A stretch of 64,000 nt of DNA, taken from assembly GCA_913054335.1 (NCBI GenBank), contig CAJXHL010000001.1, positions 22,502 through 86,501 on the forward strand, given 5' to 3'. Position numbers and translations under genes: made by a program. Below are positions 6,765-61,451 of this stretch, piece after piece (the first letter of the stretch is position 1; every line of letters starts with the position of its first letter). The stretch is from an uncultured Gammaproteobacteria bacterium (GTDB lineage: Bacteria; Pseudomonadota; Gammaproteobacteria; PS1; Pseudothioglobaceae). The notes beneath the pieces were generated by a model. It searched no databases, had not been told where the DNA came from, and was given only the letters and a program-made list of their open reading frames with translations.

Positions 6765-7190
6765 TTGATAAAATTAAAAAACAGATATTTTATCAAACTA
6801 ACGCTTATTGCAATGCAAGAAGACTTTGAGATTATTGAAATAAAGAACGATTTGATGGTGTTAAAAGCCCAACGACAAGAAGGGTGTAATACTTGCGCCT
6901 CGAAAGCCACATGCGGCACAGGTGTGTTATCGAGTTTTTTTGCTGGTTTTTCTGTGTTTAAGAAGCCTTTACAAAAAGGCGTCAAGGAAGGAGATGTTAT
7001 CACTCTGGAAATTTCTTCAAAAGAACTCTTCTTCCGCGCCTTTCAGCTCTATCTGATGCCCTTACTGGCGCTCTTTGTAGGTGCGATTCTGTCTAGCCAA
7101 TTATTTCCGGCTAATGATGTTATTCAGACGTTGATGGGTCTCGCTGCTTTTGCACTCAGTTTGGTCTTTTTAAAGGTTTACCTAAAGTGA
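6765..7190 (+). CDS. rseC: SoxR-reducing system RseC-family protein (ATG at 6813 is an alternative start)
   Basis: C..CASKATCGTG motif followed by YLMPL and two TM segments. Confidence 0.8.
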   Translation: MIKLKNRYFIKLTLIAMQEDFEIIEIKNDLMVLKAQRQEGCNTCASKATCGTGVLSSFFAGFSVFKKPLQKGVKEGDVITLEISSKELFFRAFQLYLMPLLALFVGAILSSQLFPANDVIQTLMGLAAFALSLVFLKVYLK

Positions 7191-7538
7191 GATCTTTGTG
7201 ACAGTTATTTTAGATTTGGTAGTGGGATTTTCATTGTTTTACAAGGCATATTTTTAGAGGCTCTACTTGTTGTAAGGCGATAAAATTTAACACAGGAAAA
7301 TATAGTGCAAAGCCTGCCCTTGGGTGAAAAATTCCCTATCCCGAAGGGCTGAGGTTAACAATGTTAAAGCTAAGCCAAACAACGCCTTGGCGTTTGTTTG
7401 TGCGAAACTTATACTTTAGTGTAAAAAGTGCAGAAAAATTCTCATCAATAGCTAGTGCTATTAATTTCAAATTTTTACACATTTTTTATTCATTTTTATC
7501 ATTCAGTAAATTCAAACAATAATTGTCACAAAGGTCTC
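7189..7538 (+). mobile_element. MITE-like repeat, copy 1 (long form, 350 bp)
   Basis: TIR GAGATCTTTGTGACAGTTATT / AATAATTGTCACAAAGGTCTC; perfect AAAGT direct repeat at 7184-7188 and 7539-7543; 159-bp core identical to copy 2. Confidence 0.85.
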
Positions 7539-7624
7539 AAAGTAAACACTGTGGTCATTTATTTGGCATAAAATACGCACCTTGCTACTTGAATTTTAAT
7601 CGTTGTTAGGTTGAACTGAATTAT

Positions 7625-19772: not shown

Positions 19773-19866
19773 GCTTAAACTCATTAATTCTCTGTTTGAA
19801 CGGCTTGCACTCTTTTTTTTGGTGCAATGGTATGATTGTGCTCTTTAACGAACTTTGGAGGATGCA

Positions 19867-20262
19867 ATGAAAGGAAGCTGCTTGTGCGGTGGTGTTGTCT
19901 ACGAGATTGACCCGCCTTTTAAGATTTTTCAATATTGTCACTGCTCACGCTGCCGCAAATTTACAGGCAGTGCACACGCTGCCAATCTATTTGTGCCACC
20001 CAGTCAATTTCGTTGGCTTAAAGGTAAAGAGCAACTGGGGAGGTTTGAACATCCAGAGGCAAAATACTTTGCAACGGGTTTTTGCATAAATTGCGGATCA
20101 TCAATGCCTTGGGCGGTTAAAGGCGGTGTAAATATCGTTGTGCCTGCTGGAACACTGGACGAAGATCCAGAGATTAAACCACAACAAAGTATCTTTTGGG
20201 ATTCCCGTGCGTGCTGGTTTGAGGAAAATCAAGATTTAATAAAGTTCGAGGGAACTGGTTAA
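19867..20262 (+). CDS. GFA/CENP-V family Zn protein
   Basis: GSCLCGGV, CHCSRCRK, FC..CGS. Confidence 0.92.
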   Translation: MKGSCLCGGVVYEIDPPFKIFQYCHCSRCRKFTGSAHAANLFVPPSQFRWLKGKEQLGRFEHPEAKYFATGFCINCGSSMPWAVKGGVNIVVPAGTLDEDPEIKPQQSIFWDSRACWFEENQDLIKFEGTG

Positions 20263-22042: not shown

Positions 22043-22392
22043 GAGGCCTTTACGTAAAGCATTTTATGTTTGATAGTGGGATTTTTTTTATTTTACAAGG
22101 CATATTTTTTTGAAGTTCTACTTGTTGTATAGCGATAAAATTTAACACAGGAAAATATAGTGCAAAGCCTGCCCTTGGGTGAAAAATTCCCTATCCCGAA
22201 GGGCTGAGGTTAACAATGTTAAAGCTAAGCCAAACAACGCCTTGGCGTTTGTTTGTGCGAAACTTATACTTTAGTGTAAAAAGTGCAGAATAATTCTCAT
22301 CAATAGCTAATGCTATTAATTTCAAATTTTTACACATTTTTTATTCATTACTACCACTCAGCAAACTTTAAAATGATTTATGTAAAGGCCTC
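22043..22392 (+). mobile_element. MITE-like repeat, copy 2 (long form, 350 bp)
   Basis: TIR GAGGCCTTTACGTAAAGCATTTTA / TAAAATGATTTATGTAAAGGCCTC; flanks TAGTT / TAGTA. Confidence 0.85.
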
Positions 22393-24856: not shown

Positions 24857-25258
24857 GTGAAAATAACTGGCGAGTGTTTTTGTGGAGAAGTGAAATACCA
24901 AATTGATGGCAGACTTTGTGATGCAAGATCTTGCCACTGTTCCCGTTGCCGTAAAGCATTCAGCGCACAAGCATCCGCTTACGCATTGGTTGATCCATCA
25001 AAGTTTAAGTGGTTATCTGGTAAGGATATACTCACATCCTATATTGGAAGCCATGGCTTCGGATTGCAGTTCTGTAGTCAATGCGGTTCTACTCTTTGTG
25101 GTATTCTTAATGGTGTTGTTCATGGCGTCACATTGGGTTGCGTAAACGGTGATCCAGAAATTGAGATTGGCAAACACATTTATGTTGGCTCTAAAGCACA
25201 GTGGGAAATAATCCCTGAGGGTGTTCCGCAATTCAACGAAGGTGCGCCGGAAAATTAA
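24857..25258 (+). CDS. GFA/CENP-V family Zn protein
   Basis: GECFCGEV, CHCSRCRK, FCSQCGS. Confidence 0.92.
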   Translation: MKITGECFCGEVKYQIDGRLCDARSCHCSRCRKAFSAQASAYALVDPSKFKWLSGKDILTSYIGSHGFGLQFCSQCGSTLCGILNGVVHGVTLGCVNGDPEIEIGKHIYVGSKAQWEIIPEGVPQFNEGAPEN

Positions 25259-25294
25259 AGGGGGTCGTTGTCTTTCATCATAGGAGAAACCGAG

Positions 25295-25696
25295 ATGACA
25301 ATTAAAGGCGGATGCTTATGCGGCAAGGTTCGTTACGAAATCACTGGGCCACTCTTTAGTGCAGATCACTGCCATTGCTCTATGTGTAGACGTCAGCATG
25401 GCGCAGCATTTTCTACTTATGCAAAATTTAATCCAGGTGATTTTAAATGGATTTCAGGGGAAGACTTTGTAAAAGTATTCGATCCGTCGTCAGCTGGTGG
25501 ATGGTGCTTTTGTAGTGAGTGTGGTTCGACATTAGCAGGAACCGATAAAGGTGATACTACCACTGTAACGCTCGGCACGGTTGAGGGTGATCCAGGCATA
25601 AAGCCAGAGTCGCATATCTTCGTAGGCTCCAAAGCCCAGTGGCATGATATATGTGATAATCTTCCACAATTCGAAAAACGATCTCCAAATACCTGA
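25295..25696 (+). CDS. GFA/CENP-V family Zn protein (ATG at 25295; TTG at 25268 in ORF track)
   Basis: GGCLCGKV, CHCSMCRR, FCSECGS. Confidence 0.92.
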   Translation: MTIKGGCLCGKVRYEITGPLFSADHCHCSMCRRQHGAAFSTYAKFNPGDFKWISGEDFVKVFDPSSAGGWCFCSECGSTLAGTDKGDTTTVTLGTVEGDPGIKPESHIFVGSKAQWHDICDNLPQFEKRSPNT

Positions 25697-35894: not shown

Positions 35895-37199
35895 ATGAAC
35901 AGAAAAGAACAAGTAGAAGCTTTAGAGCAGGATTGGAAAAACAACCCACGTTGGGCTGATGTTAAGCGCGGCTACTCAGCAGAAGACGTTGTACGTCTAC
36001 GTGGATCAGTACAGCCAGAATACACACTAGCGAGAAACGGTGCTGAAAAACTTTGGGAATTAATTAACGGTTCATCTAAGAAAGGCTACGTAAACTGCAT
36101 GGGCGCAATTACTGCAGGTCAAGCAATGCAACAAGCGAAAGCGGGCATTGAAGCAATTTACTTGTCAGGTTGGCAGGTTGCTGCTGATGGTAACACATCA
36201 GAAACAATGTATCCAGACCAGTCTCTATATGCTTACGACTCGGTACCTACAATGGTGCGTCGTATTAATAATACTTTTAAAAGAGCTGACGAAATTCAGT
36301 GGGCTCGTGGAATCGAAAAGGGTGACGACAAGCATGTTGATTACTTCCTTCCAATTGTTGCTGATGCTGAAGCTGGTTTTGGTGGTGTATTGAATGCATT
36401 CGAGTTAATGAAAAACATGATTGCTAACGGTGCAGCTGGCGCTCACTTTGAAGATCAATTAGCAGCTGTTAAAAAATGTGGTCACATGGGTGGTAAAGTT
36501 CTTGTACCAACACAAGAAGCTGTGCAAAAATTGATTTCAGCTCGACTAGCTTCTGACGTTATGGGCGTTCCGACTGTTGTTTTGGCGCGTACTGATGCTG
36601 AGGCTGCCAACTTATTGACATCTGATGTTGATCCAGCTGATGAGAAATTCCTTACGGGCAAGAGAACGCCTGAAGGTTTCTATATTGTTAAGAACGGTCT
36701 TGAGCAATCTATCTCTCGTGGTGTTTCATACGCACCTTACGCTGACTTAGTATGGTGTGAGACAGGCAAGCCGGACTTAGGTTTTGCGCGTGAGTTTGCT
36801 GAAGCAGTATTGGCTGAAAATCCTAACCAGCTACTTGCTTACAACTGTTCTCCGTCATTCAACTGGAAGAAGAACCTTAACGATAGCCAAATTGCTTCAT
36901 TCCAGCAGGATATTGCTGACATGGGCTACAAGTACCAGTTCATCACATTGGCTGGTATCCACAACATGTGGTACAACATGTTTGATCTTGCGCACGAGTA
37001 CGCACAAGGCGAAGGCATGAAGCACTATGTTGAAAAAGTACAAGAGCCTGAATTTGCAGCTGTTGATAAAGGTTACACATTTGCATCGCATCAACAAGAA
37101 GTTGGCGCTGGCTACTTTGATGATGTTACAACTGTTATTCAAGGTGGCGCATCTTCAGTTACTGCACTGACTGGTTCTACAGAAGAAGAGCAGTTCTAA
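35895..37199 (+). CDS. aceA: Isocitrate lyase
   Basis: KKCGHMGGK catalytic motif, [23 protein letters not shown]. Confidence 0.98.
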
Positions 37200-37207
37200 T
37201 AAAAAAT

Positions 37208-37250
37208 CCCTTCATGGGTTGGCGTCTTTTTGAGTCAATCCATGAGTGGG
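37208..37250 (+). terminator. Stem-loop between aceA and aceK
   Basis: CCCTTCATGGGTTGGC pairs with GTCAATCCATGAGTGGG using G-U pairs on the + strand. Confidence 0.55.
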
Positions 37251-37279
37251 TTCAATGTGTTATGATGAAACACTAAATT

Positions 37280-39031
37280 ATGCAAAACTCATCAACCGAT
37301 TCAACCTCAGAAGACATCGCCAAGACAATACTTGGTGGCTTTAATCAGCACTATGAAAACATCAAAAGTGCATCCATAAAGGCCAAAGAATACTTCGAAA
37401 AGCGTCAGTGGGGCCTAATTGAGCAAGAATCTAAGCGCCGACTTAACATTTATGACCAACAAGTCAATCTTTATTGTACGGAGCTCAAAGCAGGGCTAGG
37501 GCAAAGAGAGCGAGAGCCGGGTTTTTGGAAAAGTGTTAAGCGATACTACGTTCACCTAATATCTAATCACAAACAACCCGAGCTAGCGGAGACATTTTTT
37601 AATTCTGTCTTTTGTCACCTTTTTGAGCGTAGTTTTTACAACAATCAATACATTTTTACTAGACCAAGTGTATCCATCACTCATATTGACATGGATGAGC
37701 CAGTCATTGATAGCTATATTGTGCGTAACGGTGATTTAGAAGAGGTGTGTTCTCAAATATTAAAAAGCTATTCTTTTGCTTGTGAGTTCGAAGACTTGGA
37801 TAGAGACGTATTTCGATTAAAAGAGCAGCTCTTCCAGCAGTTTGAACATATTCAAACAGAACTTTTCGAGATTCAGGTAATTAACGCAGCATTTATCAGA
37901 GGCAAAGGTGCATACATTGTTGGTAATATTATTACAGAGCTTCATTCTAACCGGCCGATATTGATAGCGCTTTTAAACGAAGAAAATCGCGGTATTTTTG
38001 TCGATAGTCTGGTAACGGATCTCAGAAGTATTTCATCAATTTTCAGCTTTTCTCGCTCCTACTTCTTTATCGATACAGATTACCCATCCGCAATCGTTGA
38101 ATACTTAAGGACTGCAATTCCGGGCAAAACACGTGCAGATTTATACAGCTTAATCGGCTTACATAAGCATGGAAAAACGTTGTTGTATAGGCATTTTTTG
38201 CGTTACTCAAAGGTCACAAAGGAAAAGTTGATCGTTGCACCTGGAATTAAGGGGATGGTAATGTCGGTCTTTACTTTCCCGATGTTTCCCTTTGTTTTTA
38301 AAATGATTAATGATCATTTCACGCCACCAAAAATGGGCACTCGAAAAATGGTTCAGGATAAATATTATTTTGTTAAAAACCATGTACGCATCGGACGCCT
38401 TGCCGATACTTGGGAGTTTTCGGATGTGGCTTTTCCACTCAAAGATATTGAAGACACCTTGCTTGAAGAGCTCAAAGCGAAAGCCCCATCAAATATTGAA
38501 ATAGAAGGTGATTTGCTAATCATTAAGCATATGTATATTGAGAACAAAATGACACCGCTTAATTTGTATTTAGAAACGGCAACAGACGAGCAACAAGAGC
38601 ATATTATTAATGATTATGGTCTAGCTATTGATGAACTAATTAACTCTAATATTTTCCCGGGTGACATGCTCACTAAGAATTTTGGTGTTACTCGGCAGAA
38701 TCGTGTTGTGTTTTACGATTACGATGAAATTACACTGATGAGTAAGCCAAATTTTAGAAAAATACCCGAACCAAAAACCTACGAACAAGAGATGGCTTCT
38801 GAGCCATGGTACTACGTTGCACATGATGATGTTTTTCCTGAAGAATTTAAGTATTTTATGTTTCCGAATTCAAAAATGAAGAAAATGTTTAATCGCAATT
38901 ACAAGAAACTACTGGACGCTGATTACTGGTGTTCGATACAGAAAAAAATCGAAAAAAATGTTGTAATGGATTATTACCCGTACGGTCAAGAAAAGAGAAT
39001 GTGTGTTATTTATGCAGAAAATAATGAATAA
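37280..39031 (+). CDS. aceK: Isocitrate dehydrogenase kinase/phosphatase
   Basis: QPELAETFFNSV, APGIKGMVM, FPGDML.KNFGV, VVFYDYDE. Confidence 0.96.
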   Translation: MQNSSTDSTSEDIAKTILGGFNQHYENIKSASIKAKEYFEKRQWGLIEQESKRRLNIYDQQVNLYCTELKAGLGQREREPGFWKSVKRYYVHLISNHKQPELAETFFNSVFCHLFERSFYNNQYIFTRPSVSITHIDMDEPVIDSYIVRNGDLEEVCSQILKSYSFACEFEDLDRDVFRLKEQLFQQFEHIQTELFEIQVINAAFIRGKGAYIVGNIITELHSNRPILIALLNEENRGIFVDSLVTDLRSISSIFSFSRSYFFIDTDYPSAIVEYLRTAIPGKTRADLYSLIGLHKHGKTLLYRHFLRYSKVTKEKLIVAPGIKGMVMSVFTFPMFPFVFKMINDHFTPPKMGTRKMVQDKYYFVKNHVRIGRLADTWEFSDVAFPLKDIEDTLLEELKAKAPSNIEIEGDLLIIKHMYIENKMTPLNLYLETATDEQQEHIINDYGLAIDELINSNIFPGDMLTKNFGVTRQNRVVFYDYDEITLMSKPNFRKIPEPKTYEQEMASEPWYYVAHDDVFPEEFKYFMFPNSKMKKMFNRNYKKLLDADYWCSIQKKIEKNVVMDYYPYGQEKRMCVIYAENNE

Positions 39032-39497
39032 AACTTGCGACATATCCGATGCGTTGCATCCCGAAGTGCAATATCTAGAGCCCGGCTATCAATCTTTTGG
39101 TGGCAAGTCAAGTTTTAGTGGTCGCATTCAAACGGTTAAGTGTTTTGAGGATAACTCTCTTGTTAGGGAAAAAGTTTTTTCTAATGGTGCTGGATGTGTT
39201 TTGGTGGTCGATGCTGGCGGCTCGAAGCGTTGTGCTATGTTGGGCGATATGTTGGCTGCAAAAGCCGTGGAGAATGGTTGGCAGGGTATTATTATGCACG
39301 GTCTTATTAGAGATTCTGCTGATATTAACCAAATGGACATCGGTGTTAAATCTCTGGGAACTTTTCCCTTAAAAAGCGTCAAAAATGGCGTGGGTGAGGT
39401 GGATATTGAAGTTTCTTTTTCTGGTGTAACCTTCACGCCGGGAGACTATTTATACGCCGATGAAGACGGCGTAATTACAGTTAAGGAGAAATTATGA
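39024..39497 (+). CDS. rraA: RraA family (RNase E inhibitor / HMG-aldolase-like)
   Basis: TCDISD, FGG...F.G...TVKCFEDN, VLVVDAGGS.RCA.LGD, ADEDG. Confidence 0.92.
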   Translation: MNKTCDISDALHPEVQYLEPGYQSFGGKSSFSGRIQTVKCFEDNSLVREKVFSNGAGCVLVVDAGGSKRCAMLGDMLAAKAVENGWQGIIMHGLIRDSADINQMDIGVKSLGTFPLKSVKNGVGEVDIEVSFSGVTFTPGDYLYADEDGVITVKEKL

Positions 39498-39907
39498 AAC
39501 AAGTACTAAAGCTCGTGCTTGAAGATGCGAGAATAATGATGGATGGTGCAATCAATAAAGCACTCGAAATAGGTGTGGATATGGATATTGCTATTGTGGA
39601 TGATGGTGGGCATTTGATGTTGTTTACGAGAATGGATAATGGAAGAATTACAAGCATTAACATTTCAATCGACAAGGCCTTCACTGCCGCAGCTGCTAGA
39701 AAACCAACGTCAGATTATGCTAAAGCTGCCCGTAATCACGGCCCAGCTTTTGGCATCCAAACGTCACATCAAGGCCGTTTTTGTGTTGTTGGCGGTGGCT
39801 TGCCATTATTTGTCGAGGGTCAAATCGTTGGTGGAATTGGTTGCAGCTCGGGTACACCTGATCAAGATACAGTGGTTTCTCAGGCTGGACTTGACGCACT
39901 GATATAA
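39494..39907 (+). CDS. glcG: GlcG/HbpS-family heme-binding protein
   Basis: IAIVDDGGHL..F.RMD, KAFTA, GGLPL...G..VGGIGCS. Confidence 0.8.
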   Translation: MKQVLKLVLEDARIMMDGAINKALEIGVDMDIAIVDDGGHLMLFTRMDNGRITSINISIDKAFTAAAARKPTSDYAKAARNHGPAFGIQTSHQGRFCVVGGGLPLFVEGQIVGGIGCSSGTPDQDTVVSQAGLDALI

Positions 39908-40055
39908 AAATAACAAAGTGGGCGGTATGATGGATTAGGCAGCATCGCCCCAATAAAGTAACAAAGTGTTAATTTTCTGTAGTATTGTGTTAATTATTTA
40001 GAGTATATAAAAGAATATACTCGTCAGTATTTCAACAACTTATAGGGGGTGTTTA

Positions 40056-42227
40056 ATGGCGGACTTGCTGCTTCAGGACTCGAAAGTTTCAAATAGCAAG
40101 GTTGAGTTTGATGGTCTTGAAATTGATCGTGACTTTTATATTTTTATTGAGACCGAAGTTTGTGCGGGTTTGGCGATAGATGTGCAAGAGTTTTTTTCAT
40201 CTCTTGCCTTAATTGTTTCGGCGTTGTCTGTAAAAAATAGCGATCTTCTTAATAAAAGAGACGAACTACAAACGCAAATTGATGCGTGGCACACACAAAA
40301 TATAGCCAATTTTGATGCCAGTAAATACAAAGACTTTCTCACTAACATTGGTTATGTTTTGCCACAACCCGATGACTTTTCGATAGAAGTTGATAATGTT
40401 GATGACGAGATAACTCTTATTGCTGGCCCACAGTTGGTGGTACCTATTTCTAACGCTCGGTTTTCCCTCAATGCCGTCAATGCAAGGTGGGGCAGTTTGT
40501 TTGACTCACTGTATGGTACTGATGTCATTCCTAACAAGGGCAGCATGGCAACTTCTTTTGCCCACAATCTCCATCGCGTTAAGAAAACAGCCGAGCTTGC
40601 TTGTGACTTTCTAGATGAAGTAGTGCCGATCAAAGGTGCTTCATACAGGCAAATAATCGCTGTTGAAAAGCACCCCAGCCAGCTCATTTTTATCTTGAGT
40701 AATGGTCAAAATGCCGCCTTAGTTGATGAGAAAAAATTCATCGGATTCTCCTCTTCTGGCAACATATTGTTGCTGAATAACAATCTTCACATGGAGATTG
40801 TTTTGGATCAAGAAAGCAGTTATCACAAAAGTGGTATTTTTGATGTTTTATTAGAGTCTGCAATTAGCACTATTGTTGATTTCGAAGATTCGGCCTCAAC
40901 CGTTAGCGGCGAGGAAAAAATCGACGCCTATCGTAATTACTTGGGTCTAATGAAAAGAGATCTGAGCTTTAGTTTCGTCAAGAATGGTGAAAAACTTGAG
41001 CGCGATATGAATGAAGACCTCAGTTACACAGATGTTAAGGGTCGCTCGAAGAACTTGCCTGGCTGCAGTCTGATTTTGGTTAGACATGTGGGCCTTCATA
41101 TGTTTACCGATTTAGTTAAAGCACCGAATGGTGACTCAATTCCAGAAGGTATATTGGATGTAATGGTAACAACTTTAGCTGGTTTGCATGACTTGACATC
41201 CAAACGTAATTCTAAAAAAGGCAGTCTTTATGTGGTCAAACCAAAAATGCACAGCCCAGCTGAGGTGGCATTTACGGTTAAGCTGTTCTCATTGGTAGAG
41301 AAAGCCCTTAACTTGCAAGAAAACACCATAAAAATAGGCATTATGGATGAGGAGCGACGAGCCACTCTTAATTTAAAAGCTTGTGTTAAAGAAGCGAAAA
41401 ATCGGATTATTTTCATCAACACCGGCTTTTTGGACAGAACTGGCGATGAAATCCACACTTCGATGCTTGCAGGACCGATGCGGCGTAAAAATGAAATTAA
41501 AGAGGAGGTTTGGCTTGATGCTTATGAAAGAAACAATGTCAGCGTTGGCTTGCAAAGTGGTTTCTTCAAACGCGCTCAAATTGGCAAAGGTATGTGGGCA
41601 CAGCCTGATTTAATGCGAGACATGCTGGATACCAAGATGCTGCATTTAGAAGCGGGTGCGAGTTGCGCCTGGGTGCCTTCGCCAACAGCTGCTACGCTGC
41701 ATGCTACACATTATCATCGCTTCTCGGTGCATCATCGTCAGCAAGAACTTCAAGAAAGTTTGCAGGTTGATCAAGAAGATCTATTAAAACTACCATTGAT
41801 GAAAAGCACTGAAAATCTTTCCAAAGAGGCCATTTCGGGTGAAATTCATAATAACGCACAAGGCATTCTTGGTTACGTGGTTCGTTGGGTTGATCAAGGT
41901 GTTGGCTGCTCAAAAGTACAAGACATCAACCATGTGGGTCTAATGGAGGATCGTGCTACTTTGCGTATTTCCTCACAACATATGGCTAATTGGCTACACC
42001 ATGGCATTTGCTGTGAAGAGGAGGTGCGTTCAGCTTTTGAAGAAATGGCTGTCCTTGTTGATGGGCAAAACAAGAATGACCCTAATTACCAAAACATGGC
42101 GCCAAGTTTTGATGGCTTTGCCTACCAAGCCTCTTTAGCACTTGTTTTTGAAGGCAAAGAGCAGCCTAACGGCTACACTGAAGATGTGTTAATTCGCTTT
42201 AGGCGTAAAGTACTAGGGCTTGATTAA
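40056..42227 (+). CDS. glcB: Malate synthase G
   Basis: AGPQLVVP, NARWGSL, NTGFLDRTGDEIH, AWVPSPTAATLH, MEDRATLRISSQ. Confidence 0.97.
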   Translation: MADLLLQDSKVSNSKVEFDGLEIDRDFYIFIETEVCAGLAIDVQEFFSSLALIVSALSVKNSDLLNKRDELQTQIDAWHTQNIANFDASKYKDFLTNIGYVLPQPDDFSIEVDNVDDEITLIAGPQLVVPISNARFSLNAVNARWGSLFDSLYGTDVIPNKGSMATSFAHNLHRVKKTAELACDFLDEVVPIKGASYRQIIAVEKHPSQLIFILSNGQNAALVDEKKFIGFSSSGNILLLNNNLHMEIVLDQESSYHKSGIFDVLLESAISTIVDFEDSASTVSGEEKIDAYRNYLGLMKRDLSFSFVKNGEKLERDMNEDLSYTDVKGRSKNLPGCSLILVRHVGLHMFTDLVKAPNGDSIPEGILDVMVTTLAGLHDLTSKRNSKKGSLYVVKPKMHSPAEVAFTVKLFSLVEKALNLQENTIKIGIMDEERRATLNLKACVKEAKNRIIFINTGFLDRTGDEIHTSMLAGPMRRKNEIKEEVWLDAYERNNVSVGLQSGFFKRAQIGKGMWAQPDLMRDMLDTKMLHLEAGASCAWVPSPTAATLHATHYHRFSVHHRQQELQESLQVDQEDLLKLPLMKSTENLSKEAISGEIHNNAQGILGYVVRWVDQGVGCSKVQDINHVGLMEDRATLRISSQHMANWLHHGICCEEEVRSAFEEMAVLVDGQNKNDPNYQNMAPSFDGFAYQASLALVFEGKEQPNGYTEDVLIRFRRKVLGLD

Positions 42228-44900: not shown

Positions 44901-44946
44901 GAATGTCGGTTTAACAATTGTGGTGTAAGTAGTGCCGAGAATAGAA

Positions 44947-45040
44947 TCCAACACAAGAAAAAACTATTACCGTTGCTCCCTTCCGGGCCTGGCGGGGTTC
45001 ATAATTATTCATTGTCGGTTTACCCTCGACACTGGGTAAT
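44947..45040 (-). ncRNA. ffs: Signal recognition particle 4.5S RNA
   Basis: Minus strand carries the domain IV motif CCCGCCAGGCCCGGAAGGGAGCAACGG (44971-44997) inside a long stem (CCGACA.../...TGTTGG); lies directly upstream of dnaX. Ends approximate. Confidence 0.9.
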
Positions 45041-51512: not shown

Positions 51513-51839
51513 ATGAACGATAAAATTAAAGCGGTCTCAGACGCTTCTTTTGATGCTGACGTTATTAACGCATCACAACCAGTTTTAGTAGATTTTTGGG
51601 CGGAATGGTGTGGTCCTTGCAAGGCTCTTTCACCAATCCTAGATGACATTGCAATTGAATATGATGGTCGTGTGACTATCGCTAAAGTCAACGTTGACGA
51701 AAACATGCAGACGCCGCCAAAATACGGTATTAGGGGCATTCCTACTATGCTTTTATTTAAAGATGGCGCAGTCGAGGCCACTAAGGTTGGGGCATTGTCA
51801 AAAGCTGAATTGAGTGCATTTATAGACTCGAATATTTAG
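51513..51839 (+). CDS. trxA: Thioredoxin
   Basis: WAEWCGPCK; trxA-rho synteny. Confidence 0.97.
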
Positions 51840-51897
51840 AGACCTTTGCATAAAAACATTTAAATTTGATAGTGGGATTTTTTTTAATTTACAAGGC
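51839..51897 (+). mobile_element. Solo left end of the MITE-like repeat (copy 5)
   Basis: GAGACCTTTGCATAAAAACATTTAAATTTGATAGTGGGATTTTTTTTAATTTACAAGGC matches the first ~60 bp of copies 1, 2 and 4; no right end found downstream. Confidence 0.75.
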
Positions 51898-52051
51898 TTC
51901 ATTTAAACTAATTTTTTAAACAGAACAAAAACTTAAAACACCAATCGCTGTCGGCGCAACTTGCGCTGACAATAGCACATTTCCTCAATACAATCTGTAT
52001 TAAATCGACCGTTTGACAATCCGTCAACATAAATATCACTAACAATCAATT

Positions 52052-53314
52052 ATGAAATTATCCGACCTTAAAATCCAGACGCCATCTGAACTCTTGGAAA
52101 TGGCACAATCTTTAGGCATTGAAAACATCTCGAGAGCGAAAAAGCAAACGCTTATTTTTGCAATCTTGAAACACATGGCAGACAATGATGAAGAGGTTTT
52201 AGGTGATGGTGTATTAGATATTTTGCAAGAAGGTTATGGTTTTCTGAGATCTGCGAACGATTCGTATGTTTCTGGCCCCGACGATATTTATGTGTCACCG
52301 AACCAAATCAGGCGATTTAATCTGTCAACAGGTGATGTTGTTACTGGCAAGATTCGTGCACCAAAAAAAGGTGAAAAATATTTTGCTCTAGTCAAAGTTT
52401 TAGAGGTTAATGGTGATAAGCCAGAAAATGTTAGAAATAGAATTCCTTTTTCTTCACTAACGCCTCTTCATCCAAATGAAAGGTTAAAACTAGAGATTGG
52501 CAATGGTGGTACAGAAGATATTACCGCAAGAGTAATTGACTTGGTTGCACCGTTCGGTAAAGGCCAAAGGGGCTTGTTGGTTGCGCCGCCTAAGGCGGGC
52601 AAGACGATGATTATGCAAAATATTGCATCATCAATTGCCGTCAACCACCCAGACTGTGAGTTAATTGTATTGTTAATTGATGAGCGTCCGGAAGAGGTGA
52701 CTGAAATGGAGCGCACAGTCAGAGGTGAAGTGATTTCTTCTACTTTTGATGAGCCTGCAAAGCGCCATGTTCAGGTTGCTGAAATGGTCATCGAAAAAGC
52801 TAAAAGACGTGCTGAGCAAGGCAAGGATGTCATCATTCTTCTTGACTCAATCACGCGTTTAGCAAGAGCCTACAATACCGTTGCGCCTTCTTCTGGTAAG
52901 GTGTTGACTGGCGGTGTTGATGCTAATGCATTGCAAAGACCAAAACGCTTTTTTGGTGCCGCTAGAAACATTGAGAACGGTGGTAGTATTACTATCATTG
53001 CTACTGCATTGGTCGACACCGGTTCAAAAATGGACGAGGTGATTTACCAAGAATTCAAGGGTACTGGTAATATGGAATTGCATCTTGAGCGCCGTCTTTC
53101 AGAAAAACGCATTTTCCCAGCGATTAATATTAATGCCTCAGGTACACGTCGCGAAGAGCTGATTACCGATGAGCAAGAACTTCAGAAAATGTGGATTTTG
53201 CGCAAAATTCTTCACCCAATGGATACCGTTGGTGCTGCAGAATTTTTGATCGAAAGATTAAGGTTTTCTAAGACTAATAATGAGTTCTTTGACTCAATGA
53301 AGCAAAAGAAATAG
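52052..53314 (+). CDS. rho: Transcription termination factor Rho
   Basis: [45 protein letters not shown]. Confidence 0.98.
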
Positions 53315-53341: not shown

Positions 53342-53633
53342 GAGGCCTTTACAACAATCATTTTAAAATTTGCTGAGTGATAAAAATGAGTAAAAAATGT
53401 GTAAAAATTTATAATTAATAGCACTCGCTATTGATGAGAATTTTTCTGCACTTTTTAGCATTTTTCGCCTCAGCCCTTTGGGATAGGAGATTTTCACCCT
53501 AGGGCAGGCTTCGCACTCCAATTTTCCTGCGTTAATTTTTTTCGCTAGACAACAAGTAGAGCTTCTAAAAATATGCCTTGTAAAATAATAAAAATCCCAC
53601 TATCAAACCTAAACTGATTGTTGTAAAAGCCTC
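53342..53633 (-). mobile_element. MITE-like repeat, copy 3 (short form, 292 bp, inverted)
   Basis: TIR GAGGCCTTTACAACAATCA / TGATTGTTGTAAAAGCCTC; flanks TATGA / CATGA. Confidence 0.85.
53363..53461 (-). CDS. Putative 32-aa peptide inside the repeat (MLKSAEKFSSIASAINYKFLHIFYSFLSLSKF)
   Basis: GAGG SD 6 nt before ATG; homologous frames at 7361-7522 (53 aa), 22216-22293 (truncated) and 61331-61519. Confidence 0.35.
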   Translation of the reverse strand: MLKSAEKFSSIASAINYKFLHIFYSFLSLSKF

Positions 53634-57151: not shown

Positions 57152-57397
57152 ATGGCTAGCAAATTTGATTTTAATAAGGGCTTAAGCGAGTTAGAGTCCA
57201 TTATCAATAAAATGGAATCTGGTGATTTGAGTCTTGAGGATTCTCTTAAGTATTTTGAAAAAGGCGTTAAGCTTCATCGTCAATGTCACACGGCTCTTAG
57301 TGATGCTGAACAGCGCATTTCTGTACTAAGTGCGAGTGATGGTTACAGCTCTGAAAAGCCCTTTGACGCTCCTAGGGACACCTCTAACAACCCATGA
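57152..57397 (+). CDS. xseB: Exodeoxyribonuclease VII small subunit
   Basis: F...L.ELE.I..KME.G.LSLE.SL..FE.G...L.DAEQ. Confidence 0.93.
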   Translation: MASKFDFNKGLSELESIINKMESGDLSLEDSLKYFEKGVKLHRQCHTALSDAEQRISVLSASDGYSSEKPFDAPRDTSNNP

Positions 57398-57539
57398 TAA
57401 CCTCTAAAAAGCGAATCTTCACTCATTTGTCAATTTTAATAAAATCTGTTTTAACCCTGCTAGAACTGACTTTATTTAAATCAACAACCAAGCAAAAATA
57501 CACATTTTATAAATCACCACGGGTTGTTAGAGATGCCCT
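57374..57539. mobile_element. Second inverted-repeat-bounded element (~166 bp) between xseB and ispA
   Basis: AGGGACACCTCTAACAACCC ... GGGTTGTTAGAGATGCCCT; 12-bp perfect core CTCTAACAACCC; AT-rich interior; single copy in the window. Confidence 0.55.
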
Positions 57540-61157: not shown

Positions 61158-61451
61158 GAGACCCTTGGGTAAATCATTTTAGATTTGATAGTGGAATTTT
61201 TGTTATTTTAAAAGGCATATTTTTTTAAAGCTCTACTTGTTGTCTAGCGAAAAAAATTTACGTAGGAAAATGGAGTGCGAAGCCTGCCCTTGGGTGAAAA
61301 ATTTCCTATCCCAAAGGGCTGAGGTGAAAAATGCTAAAAAGTGCAGAAAAATTCTCATCAATAGCTAGTGCTATTAATTTTAAATTTTTACACATTTTTT
61401 ATTCATTTTTATCACTCAGCAAATTCCAAAAATGGTTTGCACAAGGATCTC
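61158..61451 (+). mobile_element. MITE-like repeat, copy 4 (short form, 294 bp)
   Basis: TIR GAGACCCTTGGGTAAATCATTTT / AAAATGGTTTGCACAAGGATCTC; flanks TAGTT / AGGTT (3 of 5 match). Confidence 0.82.

Follow-up and report, generated by a model that had tools for sequence, protein, structure and literature searches.

Gene content of the window and its host

All the sizeable open reading frames (ORFs) in the window, by which we mean the whole 64-kb stretch of DNA analysed here, have housekeeping or metabolic functions, and include pgm, rseC, aceE, pnp, valS, guaB, aceA, aceK, glcB, recR, dnaX, rodA and gltX, together with trx, rho, lptF/G, queF, pcnB, ispA, fabH, plsX, yceD, rlmB, surA and lptD. 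There are no transposase, integrase or phage genes in the 64-kb window. An earlier reading made from the sequence only had already described the window as free of transposase, and this was borne out by Pfam searches of 36 ORFs and Pfam lists for the remaining genes, in which every family was housekeeping or metabolic and none was a transposase.

Many metagenome contigs of marine and deep-sea origin, and one 119-kb NCBI record, encode proteins identical to those of the window. The nearest named homologue of RseC bears the label Candidatus Thioglobus sp. (77% identity), with closer homologues labelled 'MAG: Gammaproteobacteria bacterium', and this is a weak pointer to a Thioglobus affinity of the host. 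Rho (window 52052-53314) stands alone in its cluster at 90% identity in a set of about 15 billion proteins, and is present on 19 contigs. The isolated Rho and the RseC matches together imply an uncultured host from a fairly isolated gammaproteobacterial lineage of the deep sea. The window also carries a glyoxylate-shunt cluster (35895-42227) encoding isocitrate lyase, AceK kinase/phosphatase, RraA-like and HbpS-like proteins and malate synthase G, with an IclR-type regulator upstream on the opposite strand; this cluster indicates a capacity for heterotrophy in this lineage, for which Ca. Thioglobus is the closest named relative.

A family of dispersed intergenic repeats

Comparison of the window with itself revealed four copies of a repeat and one short fragment of its 5' end, all four copies being intergenic and 82-94% identical in pairwise comparisons. 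A profile HMM of the family, based on 23 non-redundant members, matched the four copies end to end (E = 2e-83 to 6e-74), and matched the fragment at 51839-51903 as the 5' 65 nt of the element (E = 6e-9). The sequence-only reading had counted four full copies and two remnants; the four full copies lie exactly where it had placed them, but the second remnant was absent from the window in the profile search, even at E <= 10. In a multiple alignment the four copies are collinear from the GAG... tip through to the ...CTC tip, and the 350-bp copies (starting at 7189 and 22043) correspond to the copies of about 293 bp (53342, inverted, and 61158) with one additional internal cassette of 57 bp. The ends of the four copies are GAGATCTTT, GAGGCCTTT, GAGGCTTTT and GAGACCCTT, each with a matching inverted end, and their flanking 5-mers are AAAGT/AAAGT, TAGTT/TAGTA, TATGA/CATGA and TAGTT/AGGTT; both ends and 5-mers were re-read exactly as first listed. 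The features of the family in the window are as follows.

7189..7538, + strand: full copy 1, 350 bp, core with cassettes A and B; preceded by the stop codon of rseC and followed by aceE; sister lineages are empty here
7184..7188, no strand: left target duplication AAAGT of copy 1; empty sites in L070-72 and L076-78 read ...ACCT AAAGT AAACAC...
7539..7543, no strand: right target duplication AAAGT of copy 1
7189..7214, + strand: 5' terminal inverted repeat arm of copy 1, pairs with 7513-7538
7513..7538, + strand: 3' terminal inverted repeat arm of copy 1
7260..7278, + strand: internal hairpin H2, GCTCTAC..N5..CTAGC type; 3/5 pairs covary across copies
7302..7326, + strand: optional cassette A, about 23-25 bp, completes a GCCCTTGGG/CCCGAAGGGC hairpin
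7365..7421, + strand: optional cassette B, 57 bp, with terminator-like hairpin CAAACAACGCC-TT-GGCGTTTGTTTG; also at 22220-22276
7422..7512, + strand: most conserved 3' core, long imperfect palindrome centred on ATAGC-NNNN-GCTAT
22043..22392, + strand: full copy 2, 350 bp, cassettes A and B; lysE-family stop 2 nt away, tag start 12 nt away; flanks TAGTT/TAGTA
51839..51903, + strand: 5' remnant comprising the ~65 nt at the start of the element; directly adjoins the stop codon of the thioredoxin gene, upstream of rho
53342..53633, - strand: full copy 3, 292 bp, with cassette A; rho on one side and an lptF/G-family gene on the other; + strand flanks TATGA/CATGA
61158..61451, + strand: full copy 4, 294 bp, with cassette A; lies in the yceD-rlmB spacer (both genes on the - strand); flanks TAGTT/AGGTT; empty site known

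The element has a core of ~270 bp, and family members range from 217 to 431 bp. Its terminal inverted repeats are imperfect, extending over 24-26 bp contiguously and about 40 bp if two 1-nt gaps are admitted, with the tip GAGRYCTTT and ends of the GAGRYCTTTGCANAAATCATTTTA type. On average 20 of the first 26 positions of the arms match, and 88.5% of arm cells pair. Three internal cassettes are optional: cassette A is in all four window copies and missing from most others, cassette B (57 bp) is present 0, 1 or 2 times per element, and cassette C (20-70 bp) is inserted within the 3' core. This 3' core, TAAAAAGTGCAGAAAAATTCTCATCAATAGC...TTATCACTCAGCAAATT, is the most conserved stretch and is itself a long imperfect palindrome. 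We also observed that cassette B, single in the window, is double in the conspecific contigs L005, L007 (copy 2 site) and L060 (copy 1 site), and cassette number is thus polymorphic within the species.

Beyond the window, a degenerate 30-mer from the 5' part of the element matched one contig, from the 3000-m MAG L011, among 185,579 GTDB species-representative genomes, and the family is therefore either narrowly distributed or carried by hosts that are rarely assembled. A 25-mer from the 3' core was found on 28 metagenome stretches with about 35 copies, several contigs of 6-13 kb holding two, in agreement with the sequence-only expectation of many copies. From the 3'-core matches and the loci around window genes we assembled about 60 copies, which reduce to 25 flank combinations and, after removal of two flank chimeras, to 23 independent sites, or 24 with the L084 site. 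The repeats are thus multiple and dispersed: the 64 kb carry four copies and one remnant, and related DNA contributes 24 or more distinct sites. Their density in the DNA examined is roughly one copy per 15-30 kb, and the boundaries of the element are consistent at unrelated loci. On four contigs (L002, L034, L042 and L068) flanks of different sites meet exactly at the element, a left flank from one and a right flank from another; L034, for example, combines the left flank of window copy 4 with the right flank of L033. These flank-swapped contigs reflect either repeat-induced misassembly or real recombination between copies, and would account for some of the flanking 5-mers that do not match.

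Target duplication and empty sites

Over the 24 independent sites the flanking 5-mers are perfect duplicates at six and match at 4/5 positions or better at 11, compared with means of 0.29 and 1.44 when flanks were re-paired at random (maxima of 4 and 8 in 20,000 shuffles). Flanks match poorly at 10 of these sites. Wherever a site is well preserved, and in all empty-site comparisons, the duplication measures 5 bp, and the target sites are AT-rich, with T favoured directly before the 5-mer and A(A) directly after it.

Empty sites were sought by joining the two flanks of each copy and matching the joined sequence against available DNA, with contigs encoding homologues of the flanking proteins added for the window copies. 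The joined-flank search gave three filled/empty pairs between related contigs, of which two are clean: L030 reads TATAA[element]TATGA where L033 has one TATGA, and L028 reads ATTTT[element]ATTTT where L011 and L027 have one copy of the 5-mer. At the rseC/aceE junction, the window and a sister lineage (L073-75, RseC 86%, including MAG GCA_050256335.1) are filled and read AAAGT[element]AAAGT, while lineages with RseC of 79-81% identity are empty and read ...GGTTTACCT AAAGT AAACAC..., with a spacer of 42-78 nt. The rlmB/yceD junction is empty, with a spacer of 62-66 nt, in lineages with RlmB of 87%, 85% and 79% identity; here L081 reads ...GTT AACTT ATTGAAAAG..., compared with ...ATT AACCT[element]AACTA ATTGAAAAG... 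on the reverse strand of the window. There are in total four filled/empty pairs, two of them for window copies. The check that the sequence-only reading had proposed, orthologous sites with a single 5-mer, is thus borne out at two of the four window copies and at two other members of the family; together with the statistics over 24 sites, these sites support its inference of a non-autonomous MITE with 5-bp target duplications.

The empty sites and the duplications at 24 sites are direct evidence of transposition with a 5-bp staggered cut. All four window sites are filled in every conspecific metagenome contig examined, with flanks 98-100% identical, and no filled/empty polymorphism within the species was seen in conspecific contigs at these four sites. 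Between species, insertions are lineage-specific at window copy 4, L028, L030 and L033, and window copy 1 is common to a sister species. This combination of lineage-specific and shared insertions implies that the family was active over a period spanning several speciation events. We conclude, with a probability of about 0.9, that the repeats are a family of non-coding MITEs with a 5-bp target duplication. The family is a genuine and previously undescribed one, although the kind of element is ordinary.

Coding capacity and candidate signals

The longest recurrent ORF of the element (MLKSAEKF..., 32 aa, following GAGG-N6-ATG) survives undamaged in about 9 of 23 copies, and the only relatives it has in a database of 5.8 billion proteins are ORFs of 34-73 aa from other copies of the element. 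The element therefore has no conserved ORF or other conserved coding capacity. We considered and rejected a small protein MLKSAEKFSSIASAINFKFLHIFYSFLSLSKF, with GAGG-N6-ATG upstream and cassette B in frame: the start codon is missing from about 8 of 23 copies, about 9 retain an intact ORF, conservation is equal at all codon positions, and there is no long homologue. ORFs of 34-86 aa within copies of the element are called as hypothetical proteins in public metagenomes (P0001-P0010; examples are L041 3183-3371, L007 3702-3962 and L061 2049-2210), and these calls are most likely annotation artefacts.

Searches with Rfam 15 gave hits to the element at chance level (E 0.38-0.48), and in the window only the SRP RNA passed the gathering threshold. 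This bacterial small SRP RNA (window 44933-45028, - strand, RF00169, 64 bits) overlaps the start of the predicted dnaX ORF by about 20 nt. An outward promoter in the 3' core was also rejected: the match TTTACA-17-TATCAT (10/12) occurs in copy 1 only, most copies have TATCAC, and the sister-species copy has an 11-bp deletion in the spacer just after the TTTACA hexamer. The core contains a candidate IHF site, CATCAATAGCTAG, with two mismatches to WATCAANNNNTTR by eye.

Placement at gene boundaries

The insertions occur in both orientations and occupy very short spacers that separate housekeeping genes; their tips are often 0-4 nt from a stop codon and 1-21 nt from a start codon. At 13 of 23 sites a start codon is within 21 nt of a tip. 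Orientation relative to the flanking genes follows no rule (12 sense, 5 antisense). In copy 1 the TGA stop codon of rseC is rebuilt from a flanking T and the GA of the element tip; in copy 3 the downstream ATG, that of the lptF/G-family gene, is contained in the duplicated 5-mer, 1 nt from the 5' tip; and in copy 4, 3 nt separate the 3' tip from the stop of rlmB.

A Shine-Dalgarno-like motif precedes the start codon by 7-16 nt in only 12 of the 46 window genes, and the organism seems to rely little on Shine-Dalgarno pairing. We considered whether the tips, which read ...AAAGGYCTC outward, donate Shine-Dalgarno sequences to the genes downstream, and rejected this given the same low frequency of the motif and the position of several starts 16-17 nt from AAGG. 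Weak use of Shine-Dalgarno pairing and the tiny spacers account better for the tolerated insertions.

Folding, covariation and divergence

Both strands of a short copy fold well beyond shuffled sequences (z = -3.9 and -5.9), and in the predicted fold the ends of the element pair into a long closing stem. The two arms of one copy match at a mean of 20.0 of 26 positions, against 18.6 +/- 0.28 when arms were re-paired, and 0 of 10,000 re-pairings reached the observed value. Covariation was counted over the outer stem and the internal hairpin H2 in 22 copies. Pairs changed on both sides numbered 15, compared with 9.9 +/- 1.7 in shuffles (1/500 reach), and cells changed on both sides numbered 45, compared with 20.9 (0/500 reach), counts which are not of independent events because the copies fall into subfamilies. 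When partners were slid by a few columns, pairing fell from 89% to 40-48%. In H2, three of the five pairs covary, with GC to AU six times, CG to UA twice and UA to CG twice. Arm mismatches of wobble type show no bias between strands (25 vs 17), which says little about the strand of a putative RNA.

The one cross-species pair of orthologous copies, window copy 1 and L074, is 87.9% identical (JC 0.13), while 4-fold sites in the adjacent aceE and pgm are 49-54% identical (JC 0.84 and 0.72), so that in this single pair divergence is about six times below that of synonymous sites of the neighbouring genes. In sliding windows the copy 1 orthologues are as conserved as the coding flanks. Within the species, in contrast, elements change 1.5-3 times faster than their coding flanks. 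Divergence of copy 1 below that of 4-fold sites argues against a purely selfish, neutrally decaying insertion of that age, and covariation of the arms and internal hairpin beyond shuffles is more than recognition by a transposase alone requires.

These data bear on a reading in which the copies are of MITE origin, with which it is compatible, but are now under selection as structured elements, whether as an RNA hairpin in operon transcripts, as a DNA structure or as a protein-binding site; the paired ends and covarying hairpin of copies lodged at operon junctions in a compact deep-sea genome would then act on co-transcribed mRNAs, through processing, termination, translation or the coupling of neighbouring genes. 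Such selection would account for the roughly six-fold slower change of the cross-species copy at rseC/aceE, and the covariation in the stem and in H2, the folding of both strands beyond shuffles and the fixation of all four window insertions in the population are in its favour. Other details count against it. The within-species rate relative to coding flanks is roughly neutral-like, the arms of the cross-species pair have diverged independently (GTGACAGTTATT/GTGACAATTATT vs GTAACAATCATT/GTGGCCATTATT), and this pair differs by indels in an 11-bp piece of the 3' core and in cassette A. Cassette C breaks the palindrome of the 3' core in several copies, and neither the orientation of the insertions nor the strand of the wobble mismatches shows a bias. 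The relatedness of copies within subfamilies can inflate covariation counts, and gene conversion or a later or parallel insertion from the same subfamily could also give low divergence. It is possible that the low divergence of the copy 1 pair is due to purifying selection, to gene conversion among copies, or to later or parallel insertion at the same 5-mer; pointers to parallel insertion are that window copy 4 has the same 'CACAAGG' end type and that the copy 1 orthologues differ in cassette A. On balance we regard selection on the structure, and equally the proposed action on co-transcribed mRNAs, as unlikely.

Search for an autonomous partner

No autonomous partner of the MITE family was found among the 72,556 plasmids of PLSDB in BLAST searches with the whole element, both ends and a 30-nt tip; the ends gave 68 weak matches, none of them significant among the 40 listed, with two Neisseria records counted among the other 28. 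Four scans of IMG/VR viral contigs likewise gave no partner, nor did a search of 5.8 billion proteins with the element's own ORF as query, and a pattern scan for paired ends across all loci gave only noise.

Ends of the Tn3 family have a common GGGG tip and inverted repeats of about 38-40 bp. The inverted repeats of the present family, which reach about 40 bp with two 1-nt gaps, are of similar extent, and derivation from this family, as TIMEs, would also fit the element's size, similar to the range of about 260-300 bp, and its AT-rich duplication, since TIMEs and Tn3-family transposons duplicate 5 bp (sometimes 6 bp) of AT-rich target (PMC13367494, PMC4133298). Against this, the tips are GAGRYC rather than GGGG, the ends have no BLAST match in a plasmid collection rich in Tn3-family transposons, and there are four copies in 64 kb, whereas TIMEs are usually single-copy per genome, a property ascribed to transposition immunity (PMC4133298). 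An origin of the family as Tn3-derived TIMEs is accordingly improbable.

The sequence-only reading likened the ends to the termini of IS1106, an element of the IS5 family, and a relative of that element is a second candidate partner. Within this family, ends like those of IS1106, IS427 and IS1031 begin with GAG and contain TTTGCAAAA-like runs, and the groups of the family are known for target duplications of 2-4, 8 or 9 bp. The GAG start and such runs are what would favour an IS5-family partner, but the duplication here is 5 bp, no IS5-like gene is present in the window, and the ends have no significant match among the plasmid hits listed, making this attribution very improbable.

That the repeats are immobile, being either an intergenic repeat dispersed through duplication or recombination or a family of small genes or of RNA genes, could draw on the flank swaps at L002, L034, L042 and L068, which show recombination or misassembly at copies, and on the poorly matching flanks at 10 of 24 sites, but is contradicted by the precise empty sites with a single 5-mer, and has against it the consistent boundaries at unrelated loci and the lack of a conserved ORF or Rfam match, and we dismiss it.

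Comparison with known elements

Among known elements, TIMEs (TIME1-4, IS101, MITESen1) share with the present family their non-coding nature, a size of about 250-300 bp, a 5-bp AT-rich duplication, long imperfect inverted repeats and a predicted long stem-loop when transcribed (PMC4133298, PMC13367494). They differ in their tip (GGGG type rather than GAGRYC), no sequence similarity was found, and they are mostly single-copy and associated with plasmids or transposons, whereas the present family is multi-copy and chromosomal and lies between core genes.

For the Correia elements (CREE/NEMIS) of Neisseria no cognate transposase is known, and none was found for the present family in the collections searched. 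Correia elements are also an abundant chromosomal MITE next to or between genes, with length variants that stem from an internal segment, and their ends pair into a hairpin in transcripts that is cleaved by RNase III (PMC10969869). They differ in their TA duplication, their length of about 100-160 bp and their ends, and promoter, IHF-site and RNase III roles have been demonstrated for them. ERIC/IRU and related enterobacterial units resemble the family as imperfect palindromes in transcribed intergenic regions, with internal insertions at fixed positions and small spurious ORFs, and effects on mRNA stability have been proposed for ERIC/IRU (PMC10969869, PMC2759123). The present elements, unlike these, are longer, occur in another host clade and have a clear 5-bp duplication and empty sites, and no sequence similarity was found. 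Ends of IS1106 and the IS5 family would be alike in the GAG tip and a TTTGCA-like run; they are unlike in that the present duplication is 5 bp, and neither a transposase gene nor a database match was obtained.

Proposed mechanism and implications

We propose that elements unable to move themselves are moved by a transposase acting in trans, which would cut the target with a 5-nt stagger, and which is probably a DDE-type enzyme encoded elsewhere or now lost. The element inserts at T/NNNNN/A(A) in very short spacers, duplicating 5 bp, and its conserved internal sequences may be cis-acting signals needed for movement. Copies within operons would be transcribed together with the adjacent genes, their two ends closing a long hairpin in the transcript, and cassette B could supply a terminator-like stem. 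Insertions beside start codons would be tolerated because the organism rarely uses Shine-Dalgarno sequences.

With this family, a poorly known and uncultured gammaproteobacterial lineage of the deep ocean gains an abundant MITE that has no known partner. The family accounts for unannotated spacers of 270-430 bp, for spurious small ORFs called in metagenomes, and for contigs joining unrelated flanks at a copy through misassembly or recombination, and it provides dated insertion markers for separating sister lineages. If the slow divergence and stem covariation do reflect selection, the family would exemplify the exaptation of a MITE at operon junctions.

Other features of the window

Two further features were noted. 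Three paralogous genes for GFA-domain proteins (glutathione-dependent formaldehyde-activating enzyme family) lie at 19855-20262, 24857-25258 and 25268-25696, within 6 kb and around copy 2. In the xseB-ispA spacer, a 151-bp stretch (57382-57532) has perfect 12-bp inverted repeats, CTCTAACAACCC ... GGGTTGTTAGAG, within wider 78-nt arms that are 71% complementary; the 12-mer occurs three times within one mismatch, compared with 0.26 expected, and this stretch may be a second, unrelated small palindromic element.
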